Below, one piece after another: positions 1 to 31,740 of a stretch of DNA of 37,310 nt. Source of the stretch: a virus (Duplodnaviria > Caudoviricetes); IMG/VR virus record IMGVR_UViG_3300030330_002505, positions 1 to 37,310 of that record; one strand, given 5' to 3'. How positions within the stretch are numbered: position 1 is the stretch's first letter; each line of letters opens with the position of its first letter. Below the pieces are notes generated by a model that saw only the letters and a program-made list of their open reading frames with translations, was not told the DNA's origin and searched no databases. Position numbers and translations under genes: made by a program.

Positions 1-1
1 A

Positions 2-450: not shown

Positions 451-458
451 GGTGCTGT

Positions 459-641: not shown

Positions 642-649
642 AAATTTTA

Positions 650-1435: not shown

Positions 1436-1451
1436 ACTTATTTACTCCCAT

Positions 1452-3020
1452 TTATTCAGTTATTGGTGGTTCTTCTTCTTCTCGCCCTTCTTGGGCAATT
1501 GATTGATCACTAGCTGCTTTGATTCCAGCAGGGCCAAGCTTCTCAGCCATCTGCATGAGTTGTGCTTGTTGTTGCTCTTGTGCCAACTGCTCTTGAGTCT
1601 TTATAAGTCCTGCTGTCTTGATACCAAGTGCTGTGGCTCTTCTCTTGATGTATTCAGATACGTTAACAAAGTTAGCTACCGCCTCTGGTCCTAACACCTG
1701 ACTGGAGCCAAGAAGGAATGAATCGAGACTGTTAAGATCCCCTTGTCTTCCAAGGCTATCAAGACCTGTAACAATAACAGGATTTACTAGATCCTTTGGA
1801 AGCTTTGGCATCTTCTTGTTCTTTTCCATAACACTCATCAAACGACTCAACAAAGGAGCTTGGAGATCATTGCTAAGTAAACTAAAGATACCACCAAGGG
1901 CTGCGTTAAGTTCCTGCGAGATCAATCGGATTTCTTCAGCAGTTACTCGCTCGGCATTCCTGATTGCACTGCTAGTAAGCAGGAAGTTCTGAGCAAGCCT
2001 GTCTTTGATCTGGTTGATTGTTTCCGCAGCAACTCTGAAATCATTAAACTTGTTGAGTTGGAGAGTTGATACATCCCCTGCATTACCTTGTACAATAGCT
2101 CCGTTAGGTGACTCAGAAAGACTCTTGTGTCTTGTAGTTCCATTTGGGTTAACCAGGAATAACACCTTGGCTGCTGCTGCACTGCCTTCAACGATTGCTC
2201 TAGTAAGAGACTCAAGGGACTGCAAGTCACCAAGGTACTCTTCTACATATGAGCGTCCGAAGTTCTCTCCATCAACTCTACTGAATCTAAGAGGAATGTA
2301 TGGGTTCTTATCAAGAGGAAAGGTTGTACCTGTCTCTGGAAGAACAACACCATTGATGTCCTGCTTCAACATCCACTTGTCCCCATACTTACACATCGCT
2401 GTATAGAGGTTACAGTTGCCTCCATCACCTACTCCAGAATCCTGTGGTTTCTGTATGGCTGCTTTAATATCCTCATCAAGAGCTTCGTAGTTGAGTGTTT
2501 CCTTGGTTGCTATCGTCAGAACATTATCCATAGGATCTCTTTCAATAACAAACCTATCCAACCTAAACACTCTCATGCCTCCGTTCTGATCCAAGTAAAG
2601 CAAACAGTTTCCTGTAACAATGAGTTGTTTGAGCGCTTCGTGAATAACTACTCGATAACGCTCCTTGGCTATCTCATCCATTACAGCGTCTTCAACTTTG
2701 CGTAGTGCTGAATCTATCTCACTCACTACTTCCTCTGGCGCACCTTCCTGTTGTAGCTTGTTGGTGTCTACCTGGAGTCTAAAGAAACTTATGTTGGGTG
2801 GAAGAAGTGCCAACAATAGCTTGGACGCAAGGTTGTTGACACCTCTGGCCCCCACGCCTTGAAATGGTGTATTGAGTCGTGAGTGTGATCCAAATCCTTC
2901 ATCAGGTAAGATGTAAGGTATTGTAAGTTTGGAACACTGCCTAGCTCTATCCAGGTAACTATGTCTTCTGCCTTCAAGAACTGAATAGATCTGCTCGGCT
3001 GTTTGGTTTTCGTAATTCAT
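1452..3020 (-). CDS. Head-tail connector / portal protein (T7 gp8-like)
   Basis: PFQGVGARGVNNLASKLLLALLPP, GENFGRSYVEEYLGDLQSLESL and RNAERVTAEEIR motifs; 522 aa. Confidence 0.97.
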   Translation of the reverse strand: MNYENQTAEQIYSVLEGRRHSYLDRARQCSKLTIPYILPDEGFGSHSRLNTPFQGVGARGVNNLASKLLLALLPPNISFFRLQVDTNKLQQEGAPEEVVSEIDSALRKVEDAVMDEIAKERYRVVIHEALKQLIVTGNCLLYLDQNGGMRVFRLDRFVIERDPMDNVLTIATKETLNYEALDEDIKAAIQKPQDSGVGDGGNCNLYTAMCKYGDKWMLKQDINGVVLPETGTTFPLDKNPYIPLRFSRVDGENFGRSYVEEYLGDLQSLESLTRAIVEGSAAAAKVLFLVNPNGTTRHKSLSESPNGAIVQGNAGDVSTLQLNKFNDFRVAAETINQIKDRLAQNFLLTSSAIRNAERVTAEEIRLISQELNAALGGIFSLLSNDLQAPLLSRLMSVMEKNKKMPKLPKDLVNPVIVTGLDSLGRQGDLNSLDSFLLGSSQVLGPEAVANFVNVSEYIKRRATALGIKTAGLIKTQEQLAQEQQQAQLMQMAEKLGPAGIKAASDQSIAQEGREEEEPPITE

Positions 3021-3031
3021 ATAAAAATTTT

Positions 3032-3376
3032 TTAGTCAGGTTGTACGAGTTCTTCTAATTCTTCGGGAGGATACGCCCAGTCGCTTGGAAGGGATTCCAA
3101 AACCTCGTCTTCATCTGTGAGAATGTCTTTATCAACGGCAACAACTTCTGAAGAGATTACTTCAAATGTTTCTGGGTCTGTTTCTGTTTCTGTTGTTGTT
3201 TTAAGTACAAGAGCAACTCTAGGGTTCTCCTCTTTACTCTCAACTATCCAACCCCACCAGTATCGACTTCCAGTTCCGTTAAGTGACCAACTAAGTCCAC
3301 GCATAGCTCCTGCCTGTTCACTGCGAATATGTGCTTGGTCTTCGTTGTCGTATATAATGTAAAATGGATCGGTCAT
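3032..3376 (-). CDS. Hypothetical acidic protein, possible chaperone/partner of the upstream fibre-like protein
   Basis: Clean ORF packed between the 949-aa gene and portal; C-terminal LPSDW and aromatic GSRYWWGW resemble small genes that follow phage lectin-like fibres. Confidence 0.7.
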   Translation of the reverse strand: MTDPFYIIYDNEDQAHIRSEQAGAMRGLSWSLNGTGSRYWWGWIVESKEENPRVALVLKTTTETETDPETFEVISSEVVAVDKDILTDEDEVLESLPSDWAYPPEELEELVQPD

Positions 3377-3385
3377 GATTATTTT

Positions 3386-6235
3386 TTAGAAAATGTTATG
3401 GAAGTCATTGATATCCTTTTCAATGGAAGTCCTATTGGCTGACTGGTTAGAGTCAAAGAAGATCCATTCGGAGAACTTTCCTGTGAATCCAAAAACTTTA
3501 TGGGAGTTAACACTAGGGCCATCACCATACCAACCCATTTGCAATTTAGTCCACGTAGTCGTTTGAGCATCTTGGTGATGAACTAATTTCCTTCCATTTA
3601 GGTTTGTGTAAATAGAATCTCTTGTTGCTCCTGATGGAGCTATTAAAGTGCCGTTAGCATAAAGCTTTGAATCAGGCGCTCCATAGGTTCCATTTAAAGA
3701 TCCATGTGCAAGAGTATTTGCTCCTTGTAAGGCTACCCATCCGAACTTAGAACCAGCTTGAAAATTAGTAGGATAAATATATGTATTGTCGGCAGTATCA
3801 GCTACAAACCAAGCATCTAGACGATCAACTTCAATTTGACCAAACAATTCTAAGTTGTGATAAGGATCGCTATTTATAAACTCAATAGCAGGACTACTTC
3901 CAGATCTTACAAGCAACCCTGCATTATACAATAACGGCTGATGTGCTTGAGTAGCTTGGATAGCATCTTCCCCTCCCGTTTGGTTGTATAACGTGACGAT
4001 TGAAGCGTTTCCGTCTCTTGCTGTGCCTGTTGTGGGTTGGTACTTCTTGAGTGAGTCGGTGTTTAGCTGTGCGCCAAACAAAAGAACTTCAGTAAGAGTT
4101 GTATCCCCAGATCTGAAGTCTACTCCATAAACATGGTTACCTGCTGATTCTGATGTATCTACAACGAAGTCGAACCGCTGCCATTCTTCAGTTAAAGTTA
4201 CTCCATAACGTGCTACAGATTTTACTCCTAAAACATCTACTACTCCAGTACCACTTACAGTCCTTGCATAAATTGATTTTACCTGACCTGTTGTGGCAAT
4301 CGATGTTCTTACTAGGTGAGCATTAGTACCTGTCTCAGTTATTTTATAAGCCCCAGTACCTCCAAAGGGATCGGTAACATTACTAGCTACTGCTGTGCAG
4401 TCGGTTTTAGCCCAAAAGTTATTAGAAAAGTCTTCAGAATAATCTAACAAATTCTCACCGCCAACAAAGTCATCAAGTGTACTTTCGACAAATTGAAGTC
4501 CATCATTGGAAACTACGGGGGTGCTTATGTATTCGGAAGGGATTGGATCGAACTCCTCAACTTTTACGTCATCAAGCAATAACTCGAATGGCCCTTTGGT
4601 TCCGTCGAATAAAAAGTCAAGAAAGTTTAAATTACCTCCTGCAAGAGTAGTAAAAGTTTTTGTTAAAGTGTAAGTTTGTGCTGTTGTTGTGAAATTCTGA
4701 TTACCTGCAAAGAGCATGTTTAGTGTAGCAGTTCCAAACCTGATATCACACTCTGCTGTTCCGCTAATTAGTTTAGCTTTGAAACTCACACGATACTTAA
4801 CACCTATCTTTGCATCTGACCCCATAGAGACTCTTACTCTTGGGTGAGATGCGTCACTTCCAGTGTTTGTTAAATGAATCTTTAAAGAACCACTTCCACT
4901 TATAGGGTTTGTAGTCTCATGGCTTAGTGTTGTACTGCTACCTCCATTTTCAGATTTTACCCAACCACCTGTGTCATCATTGAAGTCTCCACTGTAGGTT
5001 ATACTAGGAGTGGACTCGTAAGTGACTGTTTCCTCAAGCTGCGCTCCGAATATAGTCCTAGCTGATCCTGCTACAGCCGAAAGAGATGTGCCGTTTGATG
5101 AGAATCCAGAATAGATTTTTACATTTATTGTATTGTTTGAGTGAGTGTCTTTTAAAGTCACTGCAAATCTATACCAACCCGATACTGGCTCAGTAACGCT
5201 AATGTGAGGAGTGTTAGAAGTCGTACTCAAAGTGTTCGTAATTGTCCCATTCACTTCGTCAAAAGACACGTAACAATACTTGGTAGTCCCTCCTGTGAGT
5301 TCTAAAGCAATGCCTCCAAAGTTTGTTTTGCTTGTTTCTTTTTTTACATACCAAGAAAGAGTATGAGTAGAGTTTGCTGTAACTGATGCAGTACCGCTAC
5401 TTACGTGGTGATAAGACCCTGATGTAAGAGACTTGATAGACCACGCATTGTTACCTCCAAATGGATCTGCAAGACCCCCTATGCGTTCTGGAGTAGTCCC
5501 CAGTGTCCACTCACCAAAGTCCTCACTGAAGGGGATCAAATTCTGTGAGGTATTCCTCACGACCGAAGACTCGCTCACTCGATTACTAGCATCAAACATC
5601 ACCTGTGCCTCGGTGTTGTCGCTTGAGCGTCTTATTCTTGCTGCGTACGGAGAAACGTCTCCAAGCTTTCGAAGAGAAAAGGCTGCTACTGGTGCTTGCT
5701 TGATTACTTCTTTGACTGAGATGTTATCAAGAGAAAAGTCTGCTCCACCCGTCCCATAGAAGGCTAGACGAGCCGTTGAAGTAGCAGTTATAGTATATGA
5801 ATAAGAACCTGCGGAAGTTTGTGAAATAACCAAGTGCGACCCCCCGAAAGAGACGTTATTCCACCCTGCTGAAGTGAAGTCGCTTACATCAAACGAAAGT
5901 CTGTAAGTTTTGCCTACGACTGGGTTTACTTGAGGATCAGTAAATACCCATCCATTTGAGCTTCCAGAAAAGTTTAGCTTACCATTTGCTACGCTCCACC
6001 CTGCGTCCGAAACATCCCAACCTGTAGATCCGTCACTTAAATCTCCATTAGTTACCAACTCAGTGTTACTCAAAGTCAGCTTAAACTTCTCAAGAAACAA
6101 CTCCTCAAGTTCTGCACCTGTTAGCGGTCTTGTTAGCTTTGCTGTAAGAGGTGTTGTCAACTTGGACGATGGCCTACTAGCTGAACTACTGCTACTGCTA
6201 CTTGAAGAAGAAGAGGAAGACGATGAATAACTCAT
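3386..6235 (-). CDS. Large virion appendage/fibre-like protein with carbohydrate-binding (CBM4/9-like) and ConA/LamG-like modules, 949 aa
   Basis: Ser/Thr/Gly-rich beta protein; ELVTNGDLSDG..GW...LDNISVKE module; two NL(I/L)xxSEDF...FGAQL repeats; AAFSLRKL..RIRRSSDN and TLYNQTG..A.Q...QP motifs; poly-Ser N-terminus. Confidence 0.75.
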   Translation of the reverse strand: MSYSSSSSSSSSSSSSSSASRPSSKLTTPLTAKLTRPLTGAELEELFLEKFKLTLSNTELVTNGDLSDGSTGWDVSDAGWSVANGKLNFSGSSNGWVFTDPQVNPVVGKTYRLSFDVSDFTSAGWNNVSFGGSHLVISQTSAGSYSYTITATSTARLAFYGTGGADFSLDNISVKEVIKQAPVAAFSLRKLGDVSPYAARIRRSSDNTEAQVMFDASNRVSESSVVRNTSQNLIPFSEDFGEWTLGTTPERIGGLADPFGGNNAWSIKSLTSGSYHHVSSGTASVTANSTHTLSWYVKKETSKTNFGGIALELTGGTTKYCYVSFDEVNGTITNTLSTTSNTPHISVTEPVSGWYRFAVTLKDTHSNNTINVKIYSGFSSNGTSLSAVAGSARTIFGAQLEETVTYESTPSITYSGDFNDDTGGWVKSENGGSSTTLSHETTNPISGSGSLKIHLTNTGSDASHPRVRVSMGSDAKIGVKYRVSFKAKLISGTAECDIRFGTATLNMLFAGNQNFTTTAQTYTLTKTFTTLAGGNLNFLDFLFDGTKGPFELLLDDVKVEEFDPIPSEYISTPVVSNDGLQFVESTLDDFVGGENLLDYSEDFSNNFWAKTDCTAVASNVTDPFGGTGAYKITETGTNAHLVRTSIATTGQVKSIYARTVSGTGVVDVLGVKSVARYGVTLTEEWQRFDFVVDTSESAGNHVYGVDFRSGDTTLTEVLLFGAQLNTDSLKKYQPTTGTARDGNASIVTLYNQTGGEDAIQATQAHQPLLYNAGLLVRSGSSPAIEFINSDPYHNLELFGQIEVDRLDAWFVADTADNTYIYPTNFQAGSKFGWVALQGANTLAHGSLNGTYGAPDSKLYANGTLIAPSGATRDSIYTNLNGRKLVHHQDAQTTTWTKLQMGWYGDGPSVNSHKVFGFTGKFSEWIFFDSNQSANRTSIEKDINDFHNIF

Positions 6236-13605: not shown

Positions 13606-16020
13606 TTAGGAAAAGAAGTACGGACTATCTCGTATCAATGAGATGTCGGCTGAACCATACTCAGGTGGCTCTGGAAATTCTAAGTCAGGGTTTTGTTCTC
13701 TTATCTCACTCAACCACTCACGCAATAAATCAGGAGTAAACATCTTGACTGCTTCAGATCTAATAGTGTCTGCAAGTAACTGTGCTTTGTTTGAGTGAGT
13801 TCCAAATGAGTCATGGATCATACAGAAATCATACAAACCAAGCTTGTTACTTTCGCATACAACCTTGTGCAACAAAGCTGAGTCATATGAGTGAATTGTA
13901 TTTGGACTTACGCCATTCTTTTGTTTTACAACACTCAATGTATTGGTACTGTCCTGAAAGTTTACATGAATCGCTTGTCCTGTAATCCAAGTGCTAATCT
14001 TGTTCTCTTTAATTTTTTTGTAGTCCTGTTTTACAATGAAACCACTAGGTGTTGTCCATTGAAGTGGTCTTCCCTCTCCACTAACAATTTGTGCAACCTC
14101 AACAAACCAGTCCATGCACTGCTTCGGAAGATCAAGGATCTCCTCAATAGCTCTCCATACATTCGATGAAAGATAATGTATTGCCTTGTAGTATTCCTTT
14201 TCACAAAAGGGACTTGGACAATCATCTCCATGTATCTTGTCTTCAAACCAATCAAGAACATACTGCCTACATGAGTACTCCGTAAGCCCATAAGCTTTTG
14301 TCATTGTTGGACGTTTTAGACAGTTCCTATCAATGCCATAATCCAACCAGGCTTGAGCAAAAGGATGTCCCTTCTTTGCATCTTCACTCATGTAGGATTC
14401 ACAACGCAACCTTGCAGTGGTATAGATGTCAGCAGGAATGTCTTCATCGTTTGGCGTTACGTTAGTTGCTGCACATCCATACTCACATCTTGTAAGAATA
14501 GACAACAACTGTAGTCCATTGTTTGTTGCATCCATCATCACTGGAATCTTTGTTTTAAGTTTTCCTTTTTCAAGAAACACTCTCCACTCAAAACAAAAGG
14601 CTAAAAAACTAAAAGGTGCATCAGCTTGTATCCACCTCAAGTCACCTATGGGATCGATAGCAATAGACTTAATCATGTCGGCATTATCGTATGCCCACTG
14701 CTCTCGATCAGTTAAAGATACCTTGTCGTTGCCATAGGAATTAGATCCATGTATTGCAAGCCATCTAGCTTCCTCTTTGTTGCGTATCTTTTCTTCTCTC
14801 CAAAACTGTAACAACCCCCTAGATAAATCATTGCCCATAGGATTACAAAATGATGGGGCATAATAAACACGCCCTCTGAAGTCCACATTGCATGGTAAAA
14901 AAATTCTCTCTCCTGCAAACTTTTCTGCAAGGTACACAACCTTTGTAGTCAACATCCTCTTAGATCTTGTTGATAAATTTCTTCGGTGTATCTTGCTGGC
15001 TACTTTGGCCCATGCGTTTCTTGAGTCCCTGTTTTCATTGGCATCAATAGGAAAAGGAGGAAGCTCTTCATCTTCTTTGGAAGGCAATCCCTCGACCTCA
15101 ACGTTGTTGTCCCATGCCCATAATATAACTGCCAACACATTCTGATTGACCTCCCAAGGCGTACGCTGAATAAGGTTAACAGCATTCATTGGAACCTCTA
15201 ATTTCTTTGGGTCAATAGATCGCAGGAATTTTTTATCGTAGCTTTTAATAAATGGAAAGTCAGGAAGAAACCCATCTTCTTCACTTGCTTTGTAACCCCC
15301 ATCCCAAACATTCTCCCAGTTTTCTGGAGGGTCAATCATGGGCATCCAAAAAGGATCGAGTAAACTATGATGAGTGTTGAAGTTCTCTAACCAATCAAGA
15401 GTTTCTTTTGTGGCTGCAACAAATCTTATAAGCTTTCCTCTTGCGTGTTTTTTAATATAAAGATATTCAATCAGTCCTGTGGACACACGCAACAACTCAA
15501 CCAAATTAAGACCACAAGATAACCTGTCTCTCTTAGCCCAGTGATCGAAGTTCTTCATGCCCTCCTTCTTTTCTTCGTTCCTCATGGACAACTGAATGTG
15601 CCTGTACTGACTAGCCTTGGATCTTGTCTTGGCTCCCTTGATAATTCCTTTACCTTTTGGGTTGGTCTTAACAAGGTAGGTACACATAACCTCTCGCTCA
15701 ATATGCTTGCCAACCGCATAGGCTAAGGATGCTAAAGATTTCTTTTTAGGCAACTCATCCAGCACCACCTTGAAACATATGAATGCAGCTTTCTTTGCAT
15801 CATACTTTCTAAGATCCTCCTGCCACCTTGTCGGTCTTCCTGGGCCTTTCTTGAGTAGTTGTCTTACTCTCTTGTGGAACTCAGGTAACAACTCACGCAT
15901 TATACGTTGCCCTGCTTTGCTTCTTGAAATTTCATCATGTTCTCTCGCACTCTCCCACTGCGCATTGAAACGTCCTACGCCTATCTCAGACATCTCTTTG
16001 TTGAGTTCACTTTGATCCAT
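13606..16020 (-). CDS. Single-subunit DNA-directed RNA polymerase (T7 gp1-like)
   Basis: DFRGRVY, motif A DATNNGLQ, motif B RNCLKRPTMTKAYG, PNTIHSYD, motif C IHDSFGTH, C-terminal YFFS. Confidence 0.98.
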   Translation of the reverse strand: MDQSELNKEMSEIGVGRFNAQWESAREHDEISRSKAGQRIMRELLPEFHKRVRQLLKKGPGRPTRWQEDLRKYDAKKAAFICFKVVLDELPKKKSLASLAYAVGKHIEREVMCTYLVKTNPKGKGIIKGAKTRSKASQYRHIQLSMRNEEKKEGMKNFDHWAKRDRLSCGLNLVELLRVSTGLIEYLYIKKHARGKLIRFVAATKETLDWLENFNTHHSLLDPFWMPMIDPPENWENVWDGGYKASEEDGFLPDFPFIKSYDKKFLRSIDPKKLEVPMNAVNLIQRTPWEVNQNVLAVILWAWDNNVEVEGLPSKEDEELPPFPIDANENRDSRNAWAKVASKIHRRNLSTRSKRMLTTKVVYLAEKFAGERIFLPCNVDFRGRVYYAPSFCNPMGNDLSRGLLQFWREEKIRNKEEARWLAIHGSNSYGNDKVSLTDREQWAYDNADMIKSIAIDPIGDLRWIQADAPFSFLAFCFEWRVFLEKGKLKTKIPVMMDATNNGLQLLSILTRCEYGCAATNVTPNDEDIPADIYTTARLRCESYMSEDAKKGHPFAQAWLDYGIDRNCLKRPTMTKAYGLTEYSCRQYVLDWFEDKIHGDDCPSPFCEKEYYKAIHYLSSNVWRAIEEILDLPKQCMDWFVEVAQIVSGEGRPLQWTTPSGFIVKQDYKKIKENKISTWITGQAIHVNFQDSTNTLSVVKQKNGVSPNTIHSYDSALLHKVVCESNKLGLYDFCMIHDSFGTHSNKAQLLADTIRSEAVKMFTPDLLREWLSEIREQNPDLEFPEPPEYGSADISLIRDSPYFFS

Positions 16021-16034
16021 AATTTTATTAGATT

Positions 16035-16296
16035 TATGTCAGGAATTTGTCAGTTACAAAGACTTTCCAAAGACCATAAATTCACGTTTGTCGGCTGACA
16101 AAGCGTTGCAGGGCTTGAGTTTGATGAGTTGTTTAAAGAATGCGGAGAACCTAAATCTGGCGAGTCTACCAATTTCTCCACAGCCGCATTTAACTTGTAT
16201 CCCTTTTCGACCATACATCTAAGCTAGTTTTTCTCCCTTCTTTTCCTTACCAGAATTGTCAGCATATTCAGACAAATTTGTCACCTTTTTGTCAGG
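16035..16296. promoter_or_regulatory. attP region with candidate integrase arm-type sites (TTTGTCA-like repeats)
   Basis: Left of the core: TATGTCAGG 16035, TTTGTCAGT 16046, TTTGTCGGCTGACAAA 16087-16102. Right of the core: ATTGTCAGC 16255, GACAAATTTGTC 16271-16282, TTTGTCAGG 16288. Confidence 0.7.
16146..16187 (-). other. attP core: 5' half of a tRNA-Leu(TAG) gene (42 bp; not a complete tRNA)
   Basis: Minus strand GCGGCTGTGGAGAAATTGGTAGACTCGCCAGATTTAGGTTCT: acceptor 5' strand, D-arm with TGGTAGA, anticodon stem CCAGA and loop TTTAGGT; tRNA-like sequence then stops; about 30 bp downstream of the integrase stop. Confidence 0.88.
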
Positions 16297-17337
16297 ATAC
16301 TCCAGAGCATTGTCTAAAGCGCAAAGTGCTTGCCTTAAATTATGTGGCGCAAGCTTGGCGTACCTCATCGATTGCTCCAAAGATTTATGCCCTAACATCT
16401 GCTGTACCAAAGGAATTGAACCAGTTGCCTGTATGATCCTTGAAGCACAAGTATGCCTTGTTAAATAAAAGACAAAGTTTTTGTCAGTCGTTCTGTTCAT
16501 GTGTTCTCGCACCTTATCCCACACTGATCTAATCCTTTCCTTAGTCCAATACTTCCACAAATATTCTCTATGTGCGTTGTTTTTGTACGCCAACAAAGCT
16601 CTTCGAGTCAACGGAACAGTTCTTTGTTCTCCGTTTTTTGTATGAAACAAATCAACAACATACCCTAACTGCTCATCCCTACGAATATGATGTGGCTTTA
16701 TGTGCCTTGACTCAATAGGTCTACAACCAGTGTCTATCTGCCAGGAAAAGAAATCCGTAAAATAATCTTCACCTTGCTCTTCCAAATAACTCAATATATC
16801 AATCTCTTCTTCTTTGGAAAAGAAAACCAATCTCTCATTCTTTACCTTTATCTTCGGAAACGTTGGCTTCTTGTCAAGATACCCACGCTCAACACAATAC
16901 GTCATAGCAGTACTAAGTGATGCCAACTTTAACTTGATGGTTGCTGGAGCATTACCCGAATGCCTACAGTCCTCAACAAAATCATCAATCATTATTGTGG
17001 TGATGTTAGAAATCTTGCAGTTATGCCCGAATGCATTCTCAAACATCTTTGAGTGACTAAACCCGTTGTCCCAGTTTGGTAAGCCTTTCCACTTTCTTTC
17101 CAGGACAAGATCAAACATTTCCCTAACAGTCATACTATTGGTTCCTGTTTCCTTTTTAACAGTCTTTACTCCCTCAACCTCTAAACCATATTTTAATCGT
17201 CCACGGCTCTCATACTCCCAATTAGATGCTGCCTTTTCATCCTTAAAATATTGTCTGTATCTTTGCCCCTTAAACATGAAATCTGCTAAATATGATACGA
17301 TTTCACCCCTTTTGTTATATTGAGGTCTTGTTGCCAT
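16219..17337 (-). CDS. int: Tyrosine recombinase / phage integrase
   Basis: Catalytic residues TGCRPIE (R), TKNG (K), YLTRH (HxxR with His replaced by Tyr), LGH and MRYA (Y); adjacent to the tRNA-derived attP. Confidence 0.95.
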   Translation of the reverse strand: MATRPQYNKRGEIVSYLADFMFKGQRYRQYFKDEKAASNWEYESRGRLKYGLEVEGVKTVKKETGTNSMTVREMFDLVLERKWKGLPNWDNGFSHSKMFENAFGHNCKISNITTIMIDDFVEDCRHSGNAPATIKLKLASLSTAMTYCVERGYLDKKPTFPKIKVKNERLVFFSKEEEIDILSYLEEQGEDYFTDFFSWQIDTGCRPIESRHIKPHHIRRDEQLGYVVDLFHTKNGEQRTVPLTRRALLAYKNNAHREYLWKYWTKERIRSVWDKVREHMNRTTDKNFVFYLTRHTCASRIIQATGSIPLVQQMLGHKSLEQSMRYAKLAPHNLRQALCALDNALEYPDKKVTNLSEYADNSGKEKKGEKLA

Positions 17338-17506
17338 TCTCCTTACTCCTTTCGGTAAATGTTGCTAGGTTATATCTATTCGTTTTTTTTTTAGGTTTTA
17401 AAAGTGAGGACAAGGAATGAAAACGAACTAAACGTTCCTTGCCCCCACTAATTTAACCTAACACCAAATGACAAGCGACCCTACCAAAGAGACTCCACTA
17501 TAAAGT

Positions 17507-17656
17507 CTAAAAATCGCTTGCATCCAATGACTCATTATTTTCTCCGCTCTTTATGTGTTTGTCAACATCACAAACGGAAAAAAATCTTAGTATCAATACG
17601 TTTATGATAACCCAAGCTCCTAACAAAAATAACGCAATCATATCTCTTCTACTCAT
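17507..17656 (-). CDS. Small single-TM hypothetical protein, 49 aa; not in the ORF track
   Basis: Manual translation: MSRRDMIALFLLGAWVIINVLILRFFSVCDVDKHIKSGENNESLDASDF*; starts 8 nt after the upstream stop. Confidence 0.55.
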   Translation of the reverse strand: MSRRDMIALFLLGAWVIINVLILRFFSVCDVDKHIKSGENNESLDASDF

Positions 17657-17664
17657 TAAATATA

Positions 17665-18039
17665 TTAAAGTACAATGTAATCAACAAGCCTGTTCACATA
17701 TGGCAACAACAAATGCCTCCTACCCTCAGTTGCCCGAATGCCCTCAAGATCATCAAGGGCCACTCCTACAAGCACCTTATCTTGCCCGAATGCATCACAA
17801 ACTTCTTCCAAGTTACAACCAAACTCACTCACTAATGTATAGATGATGATGTTTCTCCAACGGATTATATAGTTCTTTTTTAGTTTCTTTAGCTGGTCTG
17901 GAGAATACCCAGTCATTTCTGATGCACCCTTTAACATTGCGTCAATGAGGCTATCAAGATCACCCGAATGCTTTTGCCCGAATGCATCTATGTTTTGTTC
18001 TTTTGTTTTTTGAGTTAGTGGTTGTTTTAATGTTTTCAT
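17665..18039 (-). CDS. DnaA C-terminal (domain IV)-like HTH DNA-binding protein
   Basis: ASEMTGYSPDQLKK...IRWRNIIIYTLVSEFGCNLEEVCDAFGQDKVLV aligns by eye with the DnaA domain IV pattern VAEYY.IS.EDL...ARQIAMYL.RELT..SLPEIG..FGRDHTTV. Confidence 0.6.
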   Translation of the reverse strand: MKTLKQPLTQKTKEQNIDAFGQKHSGDLDSLIDAMLKGASEMTGYSPDQLKKLKKNYIIRWRNIIIYTLVSEFGCNLEEVCDAFGQDKVLVGVALDDLEGIRATEGRRHLLLPYVNRLVDYIVL

Positions 18040-18053
18040 ATAAATGTTATTTG

Positions 18054-18311
18054 TTAATCTTTTGTTAAGTCGTTTATAATGTTTAGTCCCTCGATTGTTT
18101 CCGCTTCTATCTCTATTGGTTCACCTATTATTTGATTGCGTAAACTATCCATAGTGAAATCACTAACGTCCCCATACCTAGCTTCTTTTTCGCCTGGCTC
18201 TGGACTAAGGTTATATTGCTTAAATGATTTAACCTTGCCCGAATGCTTACAATAGATAACCTCAAATATTACGGGAATGCCGTTTGGCCTTAGTTGTCTT
18301 AGAATGTGCAT
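18054..18311 (-). CDS. Hypothetical early protein, 85 aa
   Basis: Clean ORF co-oriented with and packed against its neighbours; no recognisable motif. Confidence 0.7.
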   Translation of the reverse strand: MHILRQLRPNGIPVIFEVIYCKHSGKVKSFKQYNLSPEPGEKEARYGDVSDFTMDSLRNQIIGEPIEIEAETIEGLNIINDLTKD

Positions 18312-18378
18312 AAATTAGATTGCCCGAATGCCCGAATGCAATAATAAAAAATTTTTTGGTTGAGTTAATTTTTGAGTC

Positions 18379-18415
18379 AAAAAAAACCTGGAATTATTTT
18401 TATATAAAACCAGGT
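18379..18415 (-). terminator. Putative intrinsic terminator in the early region
   Basis: Minus strand ACCTGG...CCAGGT inverted repeat followed by a T run; the plus strand also has a T run; lies just after the 18431 stop. Confidence 0.55.
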
Positions 18416-18430
18416 CTTTTTAATTTTGTT

Positions 18431-18723: not shown

Positions 18724-19623
18724 TTAATGGGTAGCTATTGCAATGGTAACACCTTTAAAACGATCCGAGCCACACGCATGGCCGTTGGGCGTACATGAAC
18801 CGCATAAACCAGGACAAACAAAAGCCCGTCGATCTCCTAGGGAAGTTTTAACGGCGTTATTATAAGCCTTTGTTCTAGCTCCAATTGGGGCATCAAATTG
18901 CTTGTTTATTTCAACCGCTACAAATTCACCACGCACACATGATAAACCGTTCATTCTTTTTTTAACCTCATTATTATGAATTGAACCGCTGGAAAGATTG
19001 AGCTTGTAGTTCTCTGGAAAGGTCAAATTGAGTGAGTCATAAATTAAAAACTCTTTCCAGCTTTTAGAATATCCATAAGCTTTTATCTCAGGACGTAAAA
19101 ATAAAAGATTCATCCAAAAAGTTAAATCGTTTACGTTCCTAAAATCTCCATCCACGTAAAGACGCAAGTTTAGAAAAGACTTTCCCTTTTTTAATTTAAG
19201 GCTTTTAAATTCACTTGCTATTATATCCCTACCCTTTTTTGAATTCATCAAATAGAAATTTTGAAGCTGCCTAAAAAAAGCTGCTGGATAACGCCAGGCC
19301 TTAAACGAGTAACAAAAATCAAGGCAATCGCCAGCGCCTGGGCACGTTGCGCCTGGAATACTTGAGAAGCTAACAAACGGAAGTTTAGAATTCCCACCAT
19401 TTGCAAATATTGAAAATGGAATAGTTTTATATTCATCATCTAATAACAATGATTTAAATTTATTGGCATAATAACCCCAGGTACCACGTTTAATTCCTGA
19501 TTGCTTTTCTATATCTTCAAGAGCTTTTAATACTGGATCAATTCCGTTAGTTTCTATTTGGTCAACAAGGTCAACCAGTTTAAGGGCCATTGAACGATTA
19601 AAGGCCCATTTCTTTTTTTGCAT
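18724..19623 (-). CDS. GP88-like Cys-rich protein (radical-SAM-like fold suspected), 299 aa
   Basis: GNSKL...FSSIPGATCPGAGDCLDFCY, LRLYVDGDF, YGYSKS and C-terminal FVCPGLCGSC..HAC match the recalled Gene product 88 family pattern. Confidence 0.7.
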   Translation of the reverse strand: MQKKKWAFNRSMALKLVDLVDQIETNGIDPVLKALEDIEKQSGIKRGTWGYYANKFKSLLLDDEYKTIPFSIFANGGNSKLPFVSFSSIPGATCPGAGDCLDFCYSFKAWRYPAAFFRQLQNFYLMNSKKGRDIIASEFKSLKLKKGKSFLNLRLYVDGDFRNVNDLTFWMNLLFLRPEIKAYGYSKSWKEFLIYDSLNLTFPENYKLNLSSGSIHNNEVKKRMNGLSCVRGEFVAVEINKQFDAPIGARTKAYNNAVKTSLGDRRAFVCPGLCGSCTPNGHACGSDRFKGVTIAIATH

Positions 19624-25283: not shown

Positions 25284-28200
25284 TTAAGATTGAGGTGTAG
25301 TAAATGCTTCGTTTCCTTTCTGAATAGCTGCTTTGTAACGCTCCAAAAGCTCTGGGTTTTCTTGTAAAACTTGTTCTTGTGCTTTGCTTCTGTAAGCTCT
25401 GATAATGTTGTTGATTATGTCTATCTTAGGAGATTTTTCTCCTGTAGTCTCAAATACACTTAGGTTAGGAATATTTTTGTATTCTTTAGAACTCATAACT
25501 TCTTTTAAATACTGCCTAAGAGTTTTATCGCTGATTTTAACTGTACCAGTGAGTTCTTGAAGTCTGTCATATACATCGTATTTACCTACGCTTGATTCAA
25601 CTTCTTCAAGGTTTATATCTCTTATACCAAATAAATATTTGGGAGGTAGTTTATAACCTTGTCTAGTTTTAGCTATTTCGTTAAAGACTAGATCTTTTTT
25701 ATCAGGAGATACATAAAATGGATTTACTAATCCTAGCACCCCTGTTGGATTTGCTCTATAAACTTCTTCTCCTAATATATTTCTTTTAGGTGCTACTTTT
25801 TTATCTAAGCCTGGAACTCTTTTTGTAAGCGTATCGCTAAAGCTTTTTGCTTCTTTAACAATAATTTCAGATTTAGTATTTCTTGCTTGGTTTATAAGGT
25901 TAGGTACAAGTCCTGAACTTACATCTTTAAATAATTTAGGACCATAATATTCAGGATCTCTCATTACATTGAGCATATTGTTAACACCCTGTAAGAAAGT
26001 TTTATCTGTTAAGTTTACGGCATAAACTAAAGTCATTGCTGAAAATAGTTCAAAAGCACCTCTATCGTCATCATCTTTTACTTCATATATAAGATAGTCT
26101 CTGTAGTCTGCTGCCATTTGCATCATTGTTGCTACAGGATCAAGACGCTGATAACTGTAGTAAGTATCTCCAACTTTTATGGAATAAGGTTGCCATCCAG
26201 TTTCTCTTAGGGCATCTCTTTCCTGTCTGTTTCTTGGACCACCTCCTGTAATTGCTTGACTGCCTGAGTTGAGATATAAAAGAGTTGCTGCTGTAGTTAA
26301 TGTTCCCAATGAGAGTTGACCTAATGCGTCTGCTTTTTCTATATCAGTTCCCTCAAAGTATTTTCTTCTGTATTCTTTACTTACGTTTTTAAGTAAGCCA
26401 AAGGGTGATCTATCAAATCCAAATTTAAGAATATTGGCAGGAGTTCTAAGGAAAGGTACAACAAACTTTAGAACTGGGTGTTTTGTAAGTAATCTTGATA
26501 TAGGCTCAACTATAGATGCATTTTCTATTTTATTTGTAAATGTAGCTGTCTCTGCTCTTTGCCTGGCTTTTTCAGATCGAGCGTACACTTTGTCTAGAAT
26601 TGTAGCATTTTTATTAAACTTGTTTTCTGCTTTACGCATATAGTCTCTTATAAACTTTTCTTGGCCTTTACCAAAAGTTTTACCAGCTTTTTCCGCTGCT
26701 TGTTTTGCGCTCAACAGTAAACCTTGTTCACTCATATAACGACCTGATGCAGTGATGTAACTGTTTAAGTTTTTCTCTACATACTTTGCGACTTCATCCA
26801 TTTCTCTGCCAACAGATTGAATTTCATCATTCACATCTAGAAGTTCTCCTGCTGACTTGTTAGAGCCTTCTCCCTTACGAATCTTTTCATAAGCTTCCAT
26901 TGCGAGTTCAGTTCTTATTTCTTTCCTGTATGCTAGGTTTTTGAAGAACTCATCAAATGATGTTAGCAACCTTGACGGAAACCTTGTTACCTTTCCTATA
27001 GTATTTATACCTGTACCTAAAGTACTACTATCTGGTATTGTAGGTTTTCCAGGTAAAGCTTTTCCTATATTACTCGCTGAAATAGCTACGTCTCCTTGAC
27101 CGCTTGACTCGTTAAATTGTTTGCTTCCACTTATAAGAACTGGATCATCATTTTTTAGTGATAATACAGCAGCGTTTACTGCTTCTTTAAATGACTCGAT
27201 AGTGTAAGTAAGATTGAAAGTAGCTTTAAGAAGCTCAGTGTTTCCGCTGAATGCTGCACCCAATCCTCTTTCTGCTGAAAGCATAGCCCCAGTCAAGGCG
27301 TTACCTATTACGTTAACGACCTGTGTTGCAGGGCCACTGAGAATACTGTTGATCCAATACTCTTGAGTTATGTCTAATAGTCTTCTACCAGATGTCTTTT
27401 GTGCTAAATCAGCAGCCCTTCTAAGGTTAGCTAGATCGTCAAAAGATCCTACTGCTGCCATTTGTCTTGCAAGTTTTACTGGGTCTTTAGAACCAACTCT
27501 CTCATACAAAAACTTTGTGTAGTCAAGATCGTCCATTTTATCATCTAAAGACTTTATAGTTTTGTTTTTGTATTTATCATCTTTAAATGCGTTTTTTAAA
27601 TATTTTCTTTGAAGCAAGGACATTGAATCTCTTCTTGCTCGCTGTGCATTTACATCTACAGCTAACTCATAAAGAGTCATGCTATCTATAAATTCTCTGT
27701 AGGCATCTCCATCTGTAATCTTTGCTCCTGCATCCACCCATTTCTTCGCAGAACCTACAGCAATCTCTCCTGCTTCTCTCATTACTTGGTGGCTAGCAGC
27801 ATTCTGTCTCAACCATTGTTCGTGGAAACCAAAATCATCTTCACCTTTAAGGATTGCTTCAATAGAGTCTTTTGCTTGCCCTGTCATGTCTCCGCTGACA
27901 AAATCTATTTCTCGTTCTATCTCTTTGAATTTTTTTGCAGATATTTCTATTTTTTCTTTATTAAGGTCTGATCTTAAAGTCCAATCATCCATAATAGCTT
28001 GCATCTCAAAAGCATTTTCTGTTCTTCTAAGAAGACTACTAAGAATTGCTCTAGCTCCTCCAGTTTCAATTTTACCTGGTTTTATTTTCTTGTATGCATC
28101 AGCAGTGTCTTTCTTTGTTTGTTGATACGTTTTATTATCAACATCTAAGTACATAGGTTCAGATAGTTCTTTATCGCTTGCTATCTTTGCCTTTTTCAGT

Positions 28201-29252
28201 TTGGGTAAGTTCTCTCCTTTTGCTCTAGCTATTGCTCTTTTGAGTGTTGTTACAGCTTTTAGTTTTCCGTCTTTTCTTCTAGGATCTATGCCAAATTCTT
28301 CAGCCTCTTGTGCTAGCTTTTCTTGCGGAGTAATGAAAACATCATCAGGATCGTTTGGTATTTCATTTCCTAACGAAGGTTCTTCTTCCTCTGTTTTAAT
28401 ATTATCAAGAGTTTCATCAGGCTTGTTCATTGCGTCTGCTCCAGCCTTTTCTGCTTCTTTTGGAGTCTTACCTTTAGCCAAAGCATCTCTATAAGCTTTT
28501 AGCCCTTTAACACCTAGTCCAAATCCAAACAGCAAACCTCCAGTAATCCCTTCAATAACTGCTCCTTCCATTAGGTTTTTAAATCTTCCAACGTACTCAG
28601 AGTCTCCTTCGTTTCCTTCGTACTGTAAGAATTCTGTAAGAGGGTTGGCTAATCTTGTGTCTTGAACAAGGTCACTAAGTCTCGCCTCCTGTCCTTCAAA
28701 GGCTACAAAGTCAGAGAAAGCTGAAGCTCCAACTATTCTACCAAAGCTTGTTTTAGTATCCTTTTCAGCCATAGCTTTTCTAGTTGCTAGAGTTGACTGG
28801 TAATGTTTATCGGTCTTACTGCCCTTCATAAACTTAGTAATGAACTTACCTTTTGCAGCTTTGCCTAAGTATCCAACACCTTTAGCGACTTTTAACCCAG
28901 GAATAAATCCAACAATAAACTGAGACATTCCTTCTACAAATCCTCCAACAGTACTCTTACTATCGCCAAGAGGATTTAATGTAACGTCTACTCCTGGTAG
29001 AACATTAGCAGCACTTTCAAAAGCCTCGAAAGCACCCCTAATAGGAGCAAGTGCAACATCTCCAACAGTCTCAAGTAAAGTTAAACCTTCTTCTGTTTCC
29101 TGTTGTCCTTCTTGCATTTGAGGAACAGGACTAGGAGTGCTTTGACTTGCCTGTGTAACCCCAGAGCCAGCTTTGTTTCCTATAGCTCTAGGATTAACAG
29201 TTTCGCTAGCAAAAGCTGATGCTCCTTTTTTATATAGATCTGAAAATGCCAT
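25284..29252 (-). CDS. Internal virion protein (T7 gp16-like), 1322 aa
   Basis: Size and position; YWINSILSGP.TQ.VN, PFLRTPANI and GWQPYSIKVGD.YYSYQRLDP motifs recalled from marine T7-like gp16 homologues. Confidence 0.85.
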   Translation of the reverse strand: MAFSDLYKKGASAFASETVNPRAIGNKAGSGVTQASQSTPSPVPQMQEGQQETEEGLTLLETVGDVALAPIRGAFEAFESAANVLPGVDVTLNPLGDSKSTVGGFVEGMSQFIVGFIPGLKVAKGVGYLGKAAKGKFITKFMKGSKTDKHYQSTLATRKAMAEKDTKTSFGRIVGASAFSDFVAFEGQEARLSDLVQDTRLANPLTEFLQYEGNEGDSEYVGRFKNLMEGAVIEGITGGLLFGFGLGVKGLKAYRDALAKGKTPKEAEKAGADAMNKPDETLDNIKTEEEEPSLGNEIPNDPDDVFITPQEKLAQEAEEFGIDPRRKDGKLKAVTTLKRAIARAKGENLPKLKKAKIASDKELSEPMYLDVDNKTYQQTKKDTADAYKKIKPGKIETGGARAILSSLLRRTENAFEMQAIMDDWTLRSDLNKEKIEISAKKFKEIEREIDFVSGDMTGQAKDSIEAILKGEDDFGFHEQWLRQNAASHQVMREAGEIAVGSAKKWVDAGAKITDGDAYREFIDSMTLYELAVDVNAQRARRDSMSLLQRKYLKNAFKDDKYKNKTIKSLDDKMDDLDYTKFLYERVGSKDPVKLARQMAAVGSFDDLANLRRAADLAQKTSGRRLLDITQEYWINSILSGPATQVVNVIGNALTGAMLSAERGLGAAFSGNTELLKATFNLTYTIESFKEAVNAAVLSLKNDDPVLISGSKQFNESSGQGDVAISASNIGKALPGKPTIPDSSTLGTGINTIGKVTRFPSRLLTSFDEFFKNLAYRKEIRTELAMEAYEKIRKGEGSNKSAGELLDVNDEIQSVGREMDEVAKYVEKNLNSYITASGRYMSEQGLLLSAKQAAEKAGKTFGKGQEKFIRDYMRKAENKFNKNATILDKVYARSEKARQRAETATFTNKIENASIVEPISRLLTKHPVLKFVVPFLRTPANILKFGFDRSPFGLLKNVSKEYRRKYFEGTDIEKADALGQLSLGTLTTAATLLYLNSGSQAITGGGPRNRQERDALRETGWQPYSIKVGDTYYSYQRLDPVATMMQMAADYRDYLIYEVKDDDDRGAFELFSAMTLVYAVNLTDKTFLQGVNNMLNVMRDPEYYGPKLFKDVSSGLVPNLINQARNTKSEIIVKEAKSFSDTLTKRVPGLDKKVAPKRNILGEEVYRANPTGVLGLVNPFYVSPDKKDLVFNEIAKTRQGYKLPPKYLFGIRDINLEEVESSVGKYDVYDRLQELTGTVKISDKTLRQYLKEVMSSKEYKNIPNLSVFETTGEKSPKIDIINNIIRAYRSKAQEQVLQENPELLERYKAAIQKGNEAFTTPQS

Positions 29253-29289
29253 AAATTTTAATTATTAGTGATTGATTGAGTGAGTTGTT

Positions 29290-31740
29290 TTATTCTTGTT
29301 CGGGTAAAGTGTAAGCGTTAATTATCTTTTCTTGTGCGTCTACAAACTCTCTTGGTGTAACAGGTATATCGTTTTTCTTAATAATTTCTTCTACAGTGTT
29401 TACTGCGTCTATAATATTTTCGTTGAAGTTTGCTATCGTATTCAATGTAAGTATAGGCATCTTGTCGTAGCTAACTCTTATAAGATTATCTACAGGATAA
29501 CCAACATCGTCTCCTTCAAATCTTGCTATACCTTGTCTTGCTTCTTCTTCTGTAAGCCCAGAGGTAAGTATTAACCTTCCCATTTGTCTTCTTCTTTCAG
29601 TCATTATTTCACCAGAAGCTTCCTCAGTTGCGTCAACAGCCCCAAGGGTTCCAGGGTATCCACCTATAAGAGGAGAAACTACAGTACCTTCTCTTATGGT
29701 TTTTAAATAAGAAGGAGCGTAATCTATTTTACTCCGTATTATTTTTAAATTAGTAAAGAACTCATCTACCTTTTCTTTATCATCTCTGAACAGCCCTTCT
29801 TTCCTTACATTATTAAATTTAGTGTTGTAATTATCTAAGTCGGATTGCTCATAATTAACGTCAAAAAGACCTCCCAAAAATGTTTCATCGTTATCGGCAA
29901 TTCCAAAGTTGCTTTCTAGGCTAACATCAGGCTTGTTGTTACCATCGTTTGGAAAAGTATCCTTTCTTGATAGAAGTTCCCTGTCTTTATTTTCGATAAG
30001 CTCTTCTTCTGTTATACTTCCAATTGCTATGTCTTGTTGTTCCTCTGGTGTAAGTCTGGGATTTAGTTGCGATTGGTTTGTTTGATTTGCGGAATCTCTT
30101 TTAAGAAATTGTTCTTCATTCAGGTAATCTATAAACTTGGTTCGAGCTTCTTGTTGTAATTTTTCAGCTATTTTTGGAGCATACTCTTTTAAAAAGTTTT
30201 CTCTTCCTGAATCTCCTAAATTATCATCATCTTCAAATACTAGCTCTCTTGCTTTTGAACGCATTTCACTATCAAATTTTTGATTAGCTTCAGCGAAAAG
30301 TTTTCTTCTAGTTTGATATATTTCTGGGTCATTGAAAATGTAATCAACACTAAGAGGATCGTCTATTTCACGTTGAAATTTTGTAATTAACGACTTATAT
30401 TTCTTGAAGCCTTCTTCGTTTTCAAAGTCTCCTAAACTAACCTCGTTTGGCATAACAGCCTTCAAAGCTATCCCAACATTTGAGTCTTGAGTTAGTCCTT
30501 CAATGTCAGCTTCTTCTTGTTGGCTTAGTCTTATCTTTTCGTCGTTTAAGTATTCTCTAAAATCTTCGATAAGTTTTGGATTACCTGCTAATCTTTGATA
30601 TGTTTTTGCTAATTCACCATCATCAAGGTTTCTTATTCTTCCTAGTTCTCTTATCTTTGGGTTTACAAAATCTGTTTCTGGTACAACATCAATACCAGGA
30701 AATACGTTGAAGACAGCTTGAGGATCTTGTGGTTTTATTGTCCTAAGTTTAGGTCTTATCTCAGTGTCAAAAATGTTCTCTACAACTTTGTTATTTAACT
30801 TCGAGTTCTTTGCTAACATTCTGTCCTCTTCGTCATTGACAAATCTTTGAAGCTTTTCAATTTTCAAAGAAGTAACTTTGTCATTAAACAGAGGTGTTTT
30901 ATTTACTTTTGTTTTTTGTAACGTATCAATTAGAAGTCTAGCCTCATTATGTCTTTCATCCATTGCTAGTGCTTCTATCCTGCTACTTGTCATGTCAATG
31001 AACAGGGATTTTATCTTACTGTTTGAAATCCCTTGGCTTTGAAATACTTTGTCAAAGCTATCAAAGTAAGTTTGCATCTGAGTAAAAGTCGCCTGTTCAT
31101 CATTTGGTATGGGATCTGGAAAGTTTCTTGTGAAAACATCAAATGTTGCGTCGGTCAGATAAGCATCTCTCCTCTTATCATAAGTTTCTGATTCTTGTGT
31201 ATAAAAGTCAGCACTTGCTTTGGACCACATTGCATTATGAATGTCAGCCATGAAGGGCTTATCTTTAATGTTTTCTCTTATCTGTTGGTCAATGTTTTTA
31301 AGGCCACTGTTAATATACTCATCAAACAACCCACGATCAGCCAGTCTTTCTACTCCTTGTTTTTCTATGTCAGAGGATAACTTTGAAAACAAAGGTTTTA
31401 CAGTTAATTCAAACCCTCTACTGTAAAGTGTTTCGTTGTATTTCTTCTCATAACCTATCTTGTCTAAGAGGCCCATTTCTTTACCTTCTGCTCCTGCCAT
31501 CTGAGCTTTTACTTCTTCATTACTAACTTTAGTTAATGCGTCAATTTCTGCTCTTTGTTGTTGAACGTTACTAAACTGTCCAAGAACTGTACTGAACTGA
31601 GCGAGGTTTTTTGCTAAAACTTGTGCTTGAGTTAATCTTGGTAAAGGAGCAGCAAACACTTGGTTTCGTCCTGCACCTCTAACTGTGGGCTGTAAGCTTA
31701 CTTGATTTAGATCTAAGTTTGTCTGAGGTCTTGTTGCCAT
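29290..31740 (-). CDS. Internal virion protein (T7 gp15-like), 816 aa
   Basis: Position between the gp14-like and gp16-like genes; helical; N-terminal LAKNLAQFS..L motif. Confidence 0.75.
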   Translation of the reverse strand: MATRPQTNLDLNQVSLQPTVRGAGRNQVFAAPLPRLTQAQVLAKNLAQFSTVLGQFSNVQQQRAEIDALTKVSNEEVKAQMAGAEGKEMGLLDKIGYEKKYNETLYSRGFELTVKPLFSKLSSDIEKQGVERLADRGLFDEYINSGLKNIDQQIRENIKDKPFMADIHNAMWSKASADFYTQESETYDKRRDAYLTDATFDVFTRNFPDPIPNDEQATFTQMQTYFDSFDKVFQSQGISNSKIKSLFIDMTSSRIEALAMDERHNEARLLIDTLQKTKVNKTPLFNDKVTSLKIEKLQRFVNDEEDRMLAKNSKLNNKVVENIFDTEIRPKLRTIKPQDPQAVFNVFPGIDVVPETDFVNPKIRELGRIRNLDDGELAKTYQRLAGNPKLIEDFREYLNDEKIRLSQQEEADIEGLTQDSNVGIALKAVMPNEVSLGDFENEEGFKKYKSLITKFQREIDDPLSVDYIFNDPEIYQTRRKLFAEANQKFDSEMRSKARELVFEDDDNLGDSGRENFLKEYAPKIAEKLQQEARTKFIDYLNEEQFLKRDSANQTNQSQLNPRLTPEEQQDIAIGSITEEELIENKDRELLSRKDTFPNDGNNKPDVSLESNFGIADNDETFLGGLFDVNYEQSDLDNYNTKFNNVRKEGLFRDDKEKVDEFFTNLKIIRSKIDYAPSYLKTIREGTVVSPLIGGYPGTLGAVDATEEASGEIMTERRRQMGRLILTSGLTEEEARQGIARFEGDDVGYPVDNLIRVSYDKMPILTLNTIANFNENIIDAVNTVEEIIKKNDIPVTPREFVDAQEKIINAYTLPEQE

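Follow-up and report, generated by a model that had tools for sequence, protein, structure and literature searches.

Stoperators of the Cluster A mycobacteriophages are asymmetric sites, oriented with transcription and of lineage-specific consensus (PMC3029335, PMC9283540), that go together with heteroimmunity (PMC3029335), and their reversal abolishes repression (PMC9283540). For temperate Autographiviridae, a lysogeny module has been described that combines a MarR regulator gene, an integrase gene (int), the phage attachment site (attP) and the RNA polymerase (RNAP) gene, and both polymerase silencing and the upkeep of lysogeny in integrase-bearing T7-like phages have so far been treated through a hypothesised MarR model (PMC10134795). 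Integrase-bearing T7-like phages abound in the ocean, where 625 of 1,143 marine populations carry int, and marine integrase-bearing Autographiviridae usually show the int-attP-RNAP layout (PMC12361551). In this work we analyse an array of nine short, identically oriented boxes around int in a phage of this type, IMG/VR record IMGVR_UViG_3300030330_002505, whose 37,310 nucleotides, taken as a whole, are referred to as the window. The array is a concrete, testable control element, and a literature search, in which supplementary material was not covered, turned up nothing of this kind for T7-like phages.

Compared with the stoperators read by L5 gp71, Bxb1 gp69 and the TipsytheTRex repressor, the array likewise presents many copies of one asymmetric word, all along transcription, a lineage-specific consensus (five words in 40 of 92 loci), some promoter-like positions and a temperate carrier. 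It differs in word length (10-12 bp versus 13), in copy number and extent (3-13 copies in 1.4-3 kb around int versus 23-36 genome-wide), in that its sites are mostly coding (7 of 9) and its carrier is a podovirus with its own RNAP, and in that neither a repressor of the Cluster A family nor a helix-turn-helix (HTH) protein tracking the word was seen here. By analogy, the array would resemble stoperators in action, but being coding, local and free of a covarying HTH repressor it falls outside that group.

The window was assembled as a circle with a 300-nt end overlap, and the stretch was also found in marine metagenome runs. It carries RNAP, single-stranded DNA-binding protein (SSB), endonuclease I, primase-helicase, DNA polymerase, portal, capsid, tail and terminase genes, all on the minus strand, the closest annotated RNAP being that of Ayaqvirus S45C18 (40% identical). 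A T7-type RNAP, the T7 gene order, int before RNAP and a tRNA-type attP between them place the carrier among the integrase-bearing Autographiviridae. With LUZ100, HTVC019P, RHEph01, CRP-804 and S-SRP02 it shares int directly before RNAP, the tRNA-type attP and an HTH gene upstream, although this HTH gene encodes a DnaA domain IV-like protein, not MarR.

Nine oriented boxes in the window

The window contains exactly nine copies of the box, CCCGAATGC (which reads GCATTCGGG on the coding strand), always on the plus strand, over 1,385 bp (16955-18339, see Table 1 for the start of each copy). The original prediction, made by eye, was of nine same-strand copies and no others, and it is borne out by the exact count on both strands; shuffled sequences contained 0.08 copies on average and one at most. 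Allowing one mismatch throughout the window yields a single extra copy, on the same strand (32242), and none on the opposite strand, the polarity of the boxes being 9:0.

Seven of the nine boxes are inside open reading frames (ORFs), where they are translated as AFG (three), HSG (three) or IRA (one), while the other two are intergenic and overlap each other ahead of ORF85; the frames had been described correctly. When synonymous codons were resampled with the three peptides fixed, at most three copies appeared in 20,000 trials as opposed to the seven observed, which, along with the use of three frames, corroborates the earlier view that the nucleic acid, rather than the peptide, is under selection here. 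HSG occurs three times in the 581 residues of the box-bearing peptides and never in 9,258 other residues. Codon resampling and HSG enrichment together show codons and peptides alike bent to suit the word.

Successive boxes are 8, 85, 261, 14, 178, 52, 707 and 71 bp apart, and strict polarity at such irregular spacing calls for a directional process. In 50 distinct contexts taken from 12 related loci the consensus extends to GCATTCGGGC, followed by A (40/50) and again by A (37/50), so that information reaches 11-12 positions; the flanks vary mostly between C and T and between A and G. The array is no assembly artefact, since it recurs in independent contigs and contigs from public runs at least 99% alike cover the stretch (two of these runs, X4 and X5, appear to be one data set).

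Conservation, turnover and loss among relatives

The array is real, selected and family-wide. We scanned the window and its relatives, 92 loci once 10 duplicates had been dropped and many of them with little upstream DNA, for at least three copies of one oriented word near int. The 40 loci with a polar array, whose absence from relatives would have spoken against the original interpretation, each use one of five lineage-specific words, and the arrays reach from about 1-2 kb before int to the int stop codon. The words are GCATTCGG(G) in 17 loci, AAACCGCC in 17 (up to 13 copies), TTAACCGC in four, and CATTGCAA(G) and ATCGTTGG(G) in one each. Low-complexity sequence, namely the TTGCTTTG tract of L148 (relatives are named by locus number) and the CACACA tracts of L125, was left out of these counts. 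The L148 tract (TTGCT/TTGGT, L148:8491-8570) lies directly before int and beside a reversed early gene block.

Five relatives with int 77-96% identical contain 5-10 exact copies of the window's box on the same strand and over the same genes. In whole records the words are restricted to the int region and to one strand, with strand counts of 13:2, 13:0, 12:1 and 9:0 for AAACCGCC in four records and of 6:0 and 5:0 for GCATTCGGG in two further ones. Concerning individual sites, 8/8 are kept in L001, where a background of 0.33 of 9-mers is intact (P 1.4e-4) and one pair has slipped within the tandem, 7/8 in L003 and 5/6 in L004, and at 66% identity L206 keeps 2/2 against a background of 0.04. In L004 and L005 new sites have appeared at the N-terminal end of int, and the tandem has three copies in L001 and L002. 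L203 has a 42-nt attP tRNA half identical to that of L002 and L233, yet its word is different.

The density of AAACCGCC is 4.1 per kb in the kb before int and 2.4-2.6 per kb in int, dropping to 0 in 13.5 kb between int and RNAP, and GCATTCGGG is absent from 6 kb at -3000..-2001 of int and from 27 kb of RNAP. The limits of the array follow int, not attP or RNAP.

Loss is best seen in L176, which together with L177 nests within the A clade (that of AAACCGCC) in a quick version of the integrase tree, with int DNA 92.5% identical to L174. None of nine alignable sites is left in L176 though 44% of all 8-mers survive (P 0.005), and, read by eye, four AACCGC(C) sites in its int have changed at apparently synonymous positions; no genome-wide avoidance of sub-words was seen in the L176 case. 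L207 compared with L214 is a weaker second case, with 0/2 sites left. In L112 int itself is lost, whereas three exact and three one-mismatch boxes are kept next to an RNAP 96% identical; one of the latter lies between TTGACA and TA..T hexamers directly before RNAP, just behind a strong hairpin. At this deletion (L112:6293-7018) ORF49 is joined to RNAP via the hairpin and the promoter-like site, and the contig of X10 record 2 spans a similar deletion. The five words, the near-identical on/off pairs L174/L176 and L214/L207 and the int-less carrier L112 are natural controls.

A paired-box scan for other phage families returned 65 loci, three of this clade, and the 10 others inspected were tandem, coding or unoriented repeats. 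Among the 108 loci from a scan for triple AAACCGCC, 12 had at least three dispersed groups and none an int, RNAP or terL match. No 8-9-mer array comparable to that of the window was found in eight cultured phages (best -log10 P 7.7; a similar score puts the window at about 25), apart from a polar hexamer excess in CRP-804. An unrelated phage (L019:5001-5200) has four exact tandem copies of the 8-bp unit of the box array amid several short tandem repeats, and these are probably coincidental.

Candidate readers of the boxes

The reading of the 124-aa ORF124 as a stand-alone DnaA domain IV-like fold, proposed from its translation, is supported by homologues that match Bac_DnaA_C (E down to 5e-7, below the curated cut-off) and by Foldseek, where the top nine rows for its model (predicted local distance difference test score, pLDDT, 77) are all DnaA, with a best E of 0.014, a template-modelling score of 0.76 on the target and none with E < 0.001; a PDB sequence search with the ORF124 profile gave no match. 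Origins made of DnaA boxes or iterons, of the lambda O type, offer a model in which the boxes would be iterons or operators of ORF124, or an origin within its initiator gene. Consistent with it, the fold binds asymmetric 9-mers, the core of the box is such a 9-mer, the gene contains four boxes and AT-rich sequence borders the array. The relatives, however, largely refute it by covariation, and we regard it as hardly credible. The window's word, labelled G, occurs with four unrelated recognition helices (DKVLVGVAL, DDEVIAKITM, DHTIVSKIV and SEPMVIEAV, the last two at 30-32% identity), so the covariation of word and helix that was looked for in relatives was not seen; L207 and L214 share the helix, with ORF124 90% identical, and differ in array state; the gene is present in 12/12 array-less loci of the superclade and in none of the AAACCGCC loci, where arrays exist without it. 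An origin is further opposed by spacings ranging irregularly from 8 to 707 bp and by a protein that consists of the DNA-binding domain alone, with neither an AAA+ domain nor an initiator ATPase at hand. The data do not support ORF124 as the box reader, the first of the two binders considered earlier, the DnaA-like protein and the integrase.

A second word, TGAGTGAGT, follows the ORF124 type better. It has 16 matches in the window (15 distinct), on both strands and genome-wide, where 0.5 are expected, and reaches 1.5-6.7 per 10 kb in close relatives as compared with 0-1.1 per 10 kb elsewhere. It is absent from L206 (36.6-kb record) and L232 (7 kb), which keep the G array and have differing ORF124 types. 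This non-polar 9-mer is a candidate target of ORF124, as judged from its distribution. In 6 of 8 cultured temperate T7-like phages a MarR regulator is encoded close to where ORF124 lies upstream of int, and ORF124 is therefore likely a regulator of something else. In the records of L201 and L203 (G041, G042), CTCCCGAG/CTCGGGAG occurs in 17-18 dispersed copies on both strands, with about 4-5 expected, and is possibly the T-clade counterpart of TGAGTGAGT.

The boxes could also serve a core machine of the phage, as arm or core sites of the integrase, promoters of the phage RNAP, or stop signals for terminase or ejection proteins. The array adjoins int and RNAP, and gp13 and gp14 of G-array phages resemble one another more than they resemble those of array-less phages; we nonetheless consider this very improbable, as each machine fails to follow the word. 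For the integrase, the other binder proposed earlier, arm repeats are TGACA-based and common to lineages with different words, int-less L112 keeps its boxes, and the boxes lie 770-2,150 bp from the att core on one side only, unlike lambda-type arm sites. Unlike T7-type promoters, boxes are missing before the late genes, and the word does not follow the RNAP specificity loop, three loops occurring with one word and L174 and L176 having identical loops. TerL stays at 89-92% identity when G, T, K and array-less phages are compared, and gp15/gp16 of array-less L176 are 84-88% identical to those of L174 but 25-37% to those of array-bearing L166.

No single gene family was found in all array phages or in all array-less phages. 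The best co-occurrence in the window's lineages is that of ORF85, present in 16/16 loci with G or T arrays versus 3/12 array-less loci, and in the A lineage that of F7, a helical protein of 57-65 aa, present in 12/13 A-array loci versus 2/15 without; in both cases the loci are related and represent few independent events. Not one of the 38 homologues of ORF85 has a Pfam domain, and ORF85 itself has no family match, nor did an Atlas search with it give a match; its model (pLDDT 80) has a four-stranded sheet and two helices and no HTH.

Host and RNA signals as alternatives

That no phage protein follows the word cleanly would fit a reader in the host. The boxes would then be a directional signal near the first-entering left end, either Chi-like (RecBCD/AddAB), taming end-degrading enzymes, or resembling the FtsK-orienting polar sequences (KOPS) and recruiting a genome-pulling translocase. 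The physical left end is predicted, from gene order, between the amidase gene and the first early gene, at about 20.7-21.4 kb, which puts the boxes about 2.7-4.1 kb from it. A strictly oriented, asymmetric word of 8-10 nt located about 2-4 kb from that end would suit such a signal, as would one word kept across phages with RNAP only 56-60% identical and the AACCGC common to the A and T words. Terminally clustered, oriented Chi arrays exist in the lambdoid phage LLS and in Pseudomonas phage MD8, and also in phages without recombination modules (PMC12315714); these resemble the present array in being short oriented words over coding sequence, with patchy occurrence, and in lying near a genome end, which for the window is a predicted one. 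Likewise, the first 3,720 nt (positions 1-3720, L396) of Roseobacter phage CRP-804, a cultured phage with a known host, show CCCTTG 15 times on one strand, with 1.6 expected and 0 reversed, making it a tractable test case for polar early arrays. Were the reader a host enzyme, the words would point to Chi- or KOPS-like motifs in marine bacteria not yet cultured and would serve as host markers.

The attP tRNA half matches 32 GTDB genomes, nearly all titled Alphaproteobacteria, through the L002/L003 variant only and never the window's. Counts in these genomes (9-mer, 0-32 copies, about chance), in 121 genomes of one alphaproteobacterial order (10-mer, 0-17 copies) and in 151 genomes of the class (11-mer, 0-10 copies; one genome, G196, is marked unpublished, and no claim depends on it alone) show no excess, and this weakens the Chi- or KOPS-like reading, though the genomes tested, with none of Verrucomicrobiota among them, may not include the host. 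Other host clues diverge. Labels in the integrase cluster comprise one Opitutae TMED67 and otherwise Idiomarina, Pseudomonadota and Altibacter, and since they are inconsistent, these labels of metagenome-assembled genomes seem to stem from phage contigs that were binned along. A search of 12 metagenome loci, three viral loci and the contigs of four runs gave no attL/attR junction. In L121, L125 and L127 we noticed by eye what we take to be PEP-CTERM-like tails.

Further points also speak against a host signal. In contrast to LLS and MD8, the word is no known Chi, the cluster avoids the outermost 2.7 kb at the predicted end and ends at the stop codon of int, however far away RNAP lies, and the phages encode their own exonuclease, endonuclease and SSB. 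Active local loss as in L176 is unexpected for a merely unneeded signal, information spans 11-12 positions, and in the 37 kb of LUZ100 the bottom strand carries GCTGGTGG just three times, twice near the left end, and GCTGGCGC is missing. All in all, we think a host signal unlikely, though as the main rival it deserves to be taken seriously.

Immunity based on RNA is known in families of the P4 CI and P1 C4 type, and the boxes could be repeated targets on early mRNA for a small RNA or an RNA-binding protein acting in immunity, antitermination or decay. Every box is on the sense strand, the C/T and A/G flank variation is what G-U pairing would allow, and seven boxes are ahead of a strong terminator before int. 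Yet no complementary copy exists on the coding strand with one mismatch allowed, and the L112 box in the promoter spacer is behind the terminator, outside the expected transcript. The boxes form no stable hairpin and have no Rfam match at the gathering score, so that the hairpin-type antitermination element put forward originally found no support; a signal at the RNA level is improbable.

Proposed polar operators for read-through into int and RNAP

Our preferred reading, held tentatively and with something less than even confidence, is that the boxes are stoperator-like polar operators for a small phage protein controlling read-through into int and RNAP. An operator or roadblock towards int and RNAP had already been suggested, and that part still reads best, whereas the binders then named do not. 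The candidate reader would act on DNA and be phage-encoded, with ORF85 as the best co-occurring candidate here and F7 in the AAACCGCC lineage. Bound boxes might block initiation, as suggested by the tandem boxes behind the upstream hairpin and by the box within the L112 promoter spacer, and might also block, in a polar way, elongation by the host RNA polymerase into int and the phage RNAP gene. Prophage silencing and superinfection immunity would result, the words would be immunity types, and erased arrays would belong to escape mutants.

We favour polar operators over a Chi-type signal for four reasons: the array keeps its limits relative to int and not to the genome end, different words occur in phages whose attP half is the same, a promoter spacer contains one of the boxes (L112), and the sites of a close relative have been erased locally, which is what would be expected of an immunity-escape mutant.

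A number of observations weigh against an operator array all the same. No HTH repressor tracks the word in a screen that covered ORFs of about 38 aa and up, and the predicted structure of ORF85 is rich in beta strands and lacks an HTH; acidic residues outnumber basic ones in this protein. Candidates and arrays also come apart: L192, L193 and L226 have ORF85 and no array, L176 keeps F7 (89% identity) and no array, L162 has 13 sites and no F7 within its 2.1 kb, and the weak array of L214 goes without ORF85. Stoperators sit mainly between genes and all over the genome, while 7 of 9 sites here are in genes and all within 1.4 kb. The boxes retained by int-less L112 imply a role not strictly bound to integration, and the T word (ATTAACCGC) and the A word share AACCGC without a common candidate reader, which suits a host reader better.

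A broader version, which we find doubtful as a whole, is a so far undescribed immunity or entry switch of temperate T7-like marine phages, in which a non-HTH beta-sheet early protein (an ORF85 homologue), or else a DNA motor recruited from the host, would read the array around int and gate passage to the RNAP gene, ORF124 would read the second, non-polar 9-mer, and lineages would rewrite or erase the word. T7 enters its host by transcription-driven genome entry, and under such a switch entry would be gated along with transcription.

Genomic context of the array

The coordinates of the boxes and their surroundings are collected in Table 1. The early terminator that had been placed just upstream of the array corresponds to a real hairpin, but a stronger one inside the array had been missed. 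The promoter-like TTGACA stretch that L001-L005 carry just before int is absent from the window (about 17340-17400), and with this stretch missing int may depend on read-through of the hairpin; a promoter scan stayed at chance level.

Table 1. Boxes, genes and other features of the window.
Feature	Position	Strand	Remarks
Two overlapping boxes, 8-bp period, intergenic	18323..18339	-	Starts 18323 and 18331; 12-28 nt ahead of ORF85 start; three copies in L001, L002
Box in ORF85, HSG frame	18238..18246	-	Start 18238
Two boxes near ORF124 5' end (AFG, HSG)	17963..17985	-	Starts 17963 and 17977
Box in ORF124, AFG	17785..17793	-	Start 17785; AFG peptide common family-wide, so the site is weak evidence by itself
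Box in ORF124, IRA frame	17733..17741	-	Start 17733
Box in int, AFG frame	17026..17034	-	Start 17026; retained in L206 at 66% DNA identity
Box in int, HSG frame	16955..16963	-	Start 16955; retained in L206
Terminator-like hairpin and U-run	18381..18421	-	Upstream limit of array; region z -2.4
Strong terminator-like hairpin between ORF49 and int	17403..17449	-	z -4.4; seven boxes upstream, two downstream
ORF85	18054..18311	-	Beta-sheet and two helices predicted, HTH absent; candidate reader with the best co-occurrence
ORF124, stand-alone DnaA domain IV-like HTH protein	17665..18039	-	Highly variable recognition helix; does not track word
ORF49, small hydrophobic protein	17507..17656	-	Without boxes
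Tyrosine integrase (PF00589, phrog_1)	16219..17337	-	
Predicted attP core, 5' half of tRNA-Leu(TAG)	16146..16188	-	Compensatory D-stem changes among relatives; flanking TGACA arm-type repeats, unrelated to boxes
T7-type RNA polymerase gene	13606..16020	-	Free of boxes
GP88-family gene (PF17338), early region	18724-19623		Without boxes though present in several G-clade phages
TGAGTGAGT, example sites	4048, 5138, 9581, 11648, 13792, 17823, 19029, 22136, 29277, 33550	both	

Types of attP differ within the family, as surveyed in the window, L129, L121/L123 and L158-L182. Besides the 5' tRNA-Leu(TAG) half of the window there are reversed 3' parts of other tRNAs (L121/L123 being among the variant loci), a whole tRNA-Leu just before RNAP in L129 and, across L162-L178, non-tRNA sites; TGACA arm repeats accompany every type. 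With ARAGORN no whole tRNA was detected. In a lysogen with the 5'-half attP the intact tRNA would rely on transcription from the phage side. Further away, gp15 and gp16 (window 25284-31740) are only 37-42% identical to those of L004 (record G055), while the neighbouring structural genes are 89-100% identical; judged by these identities, the difference is a swapped ejection module.

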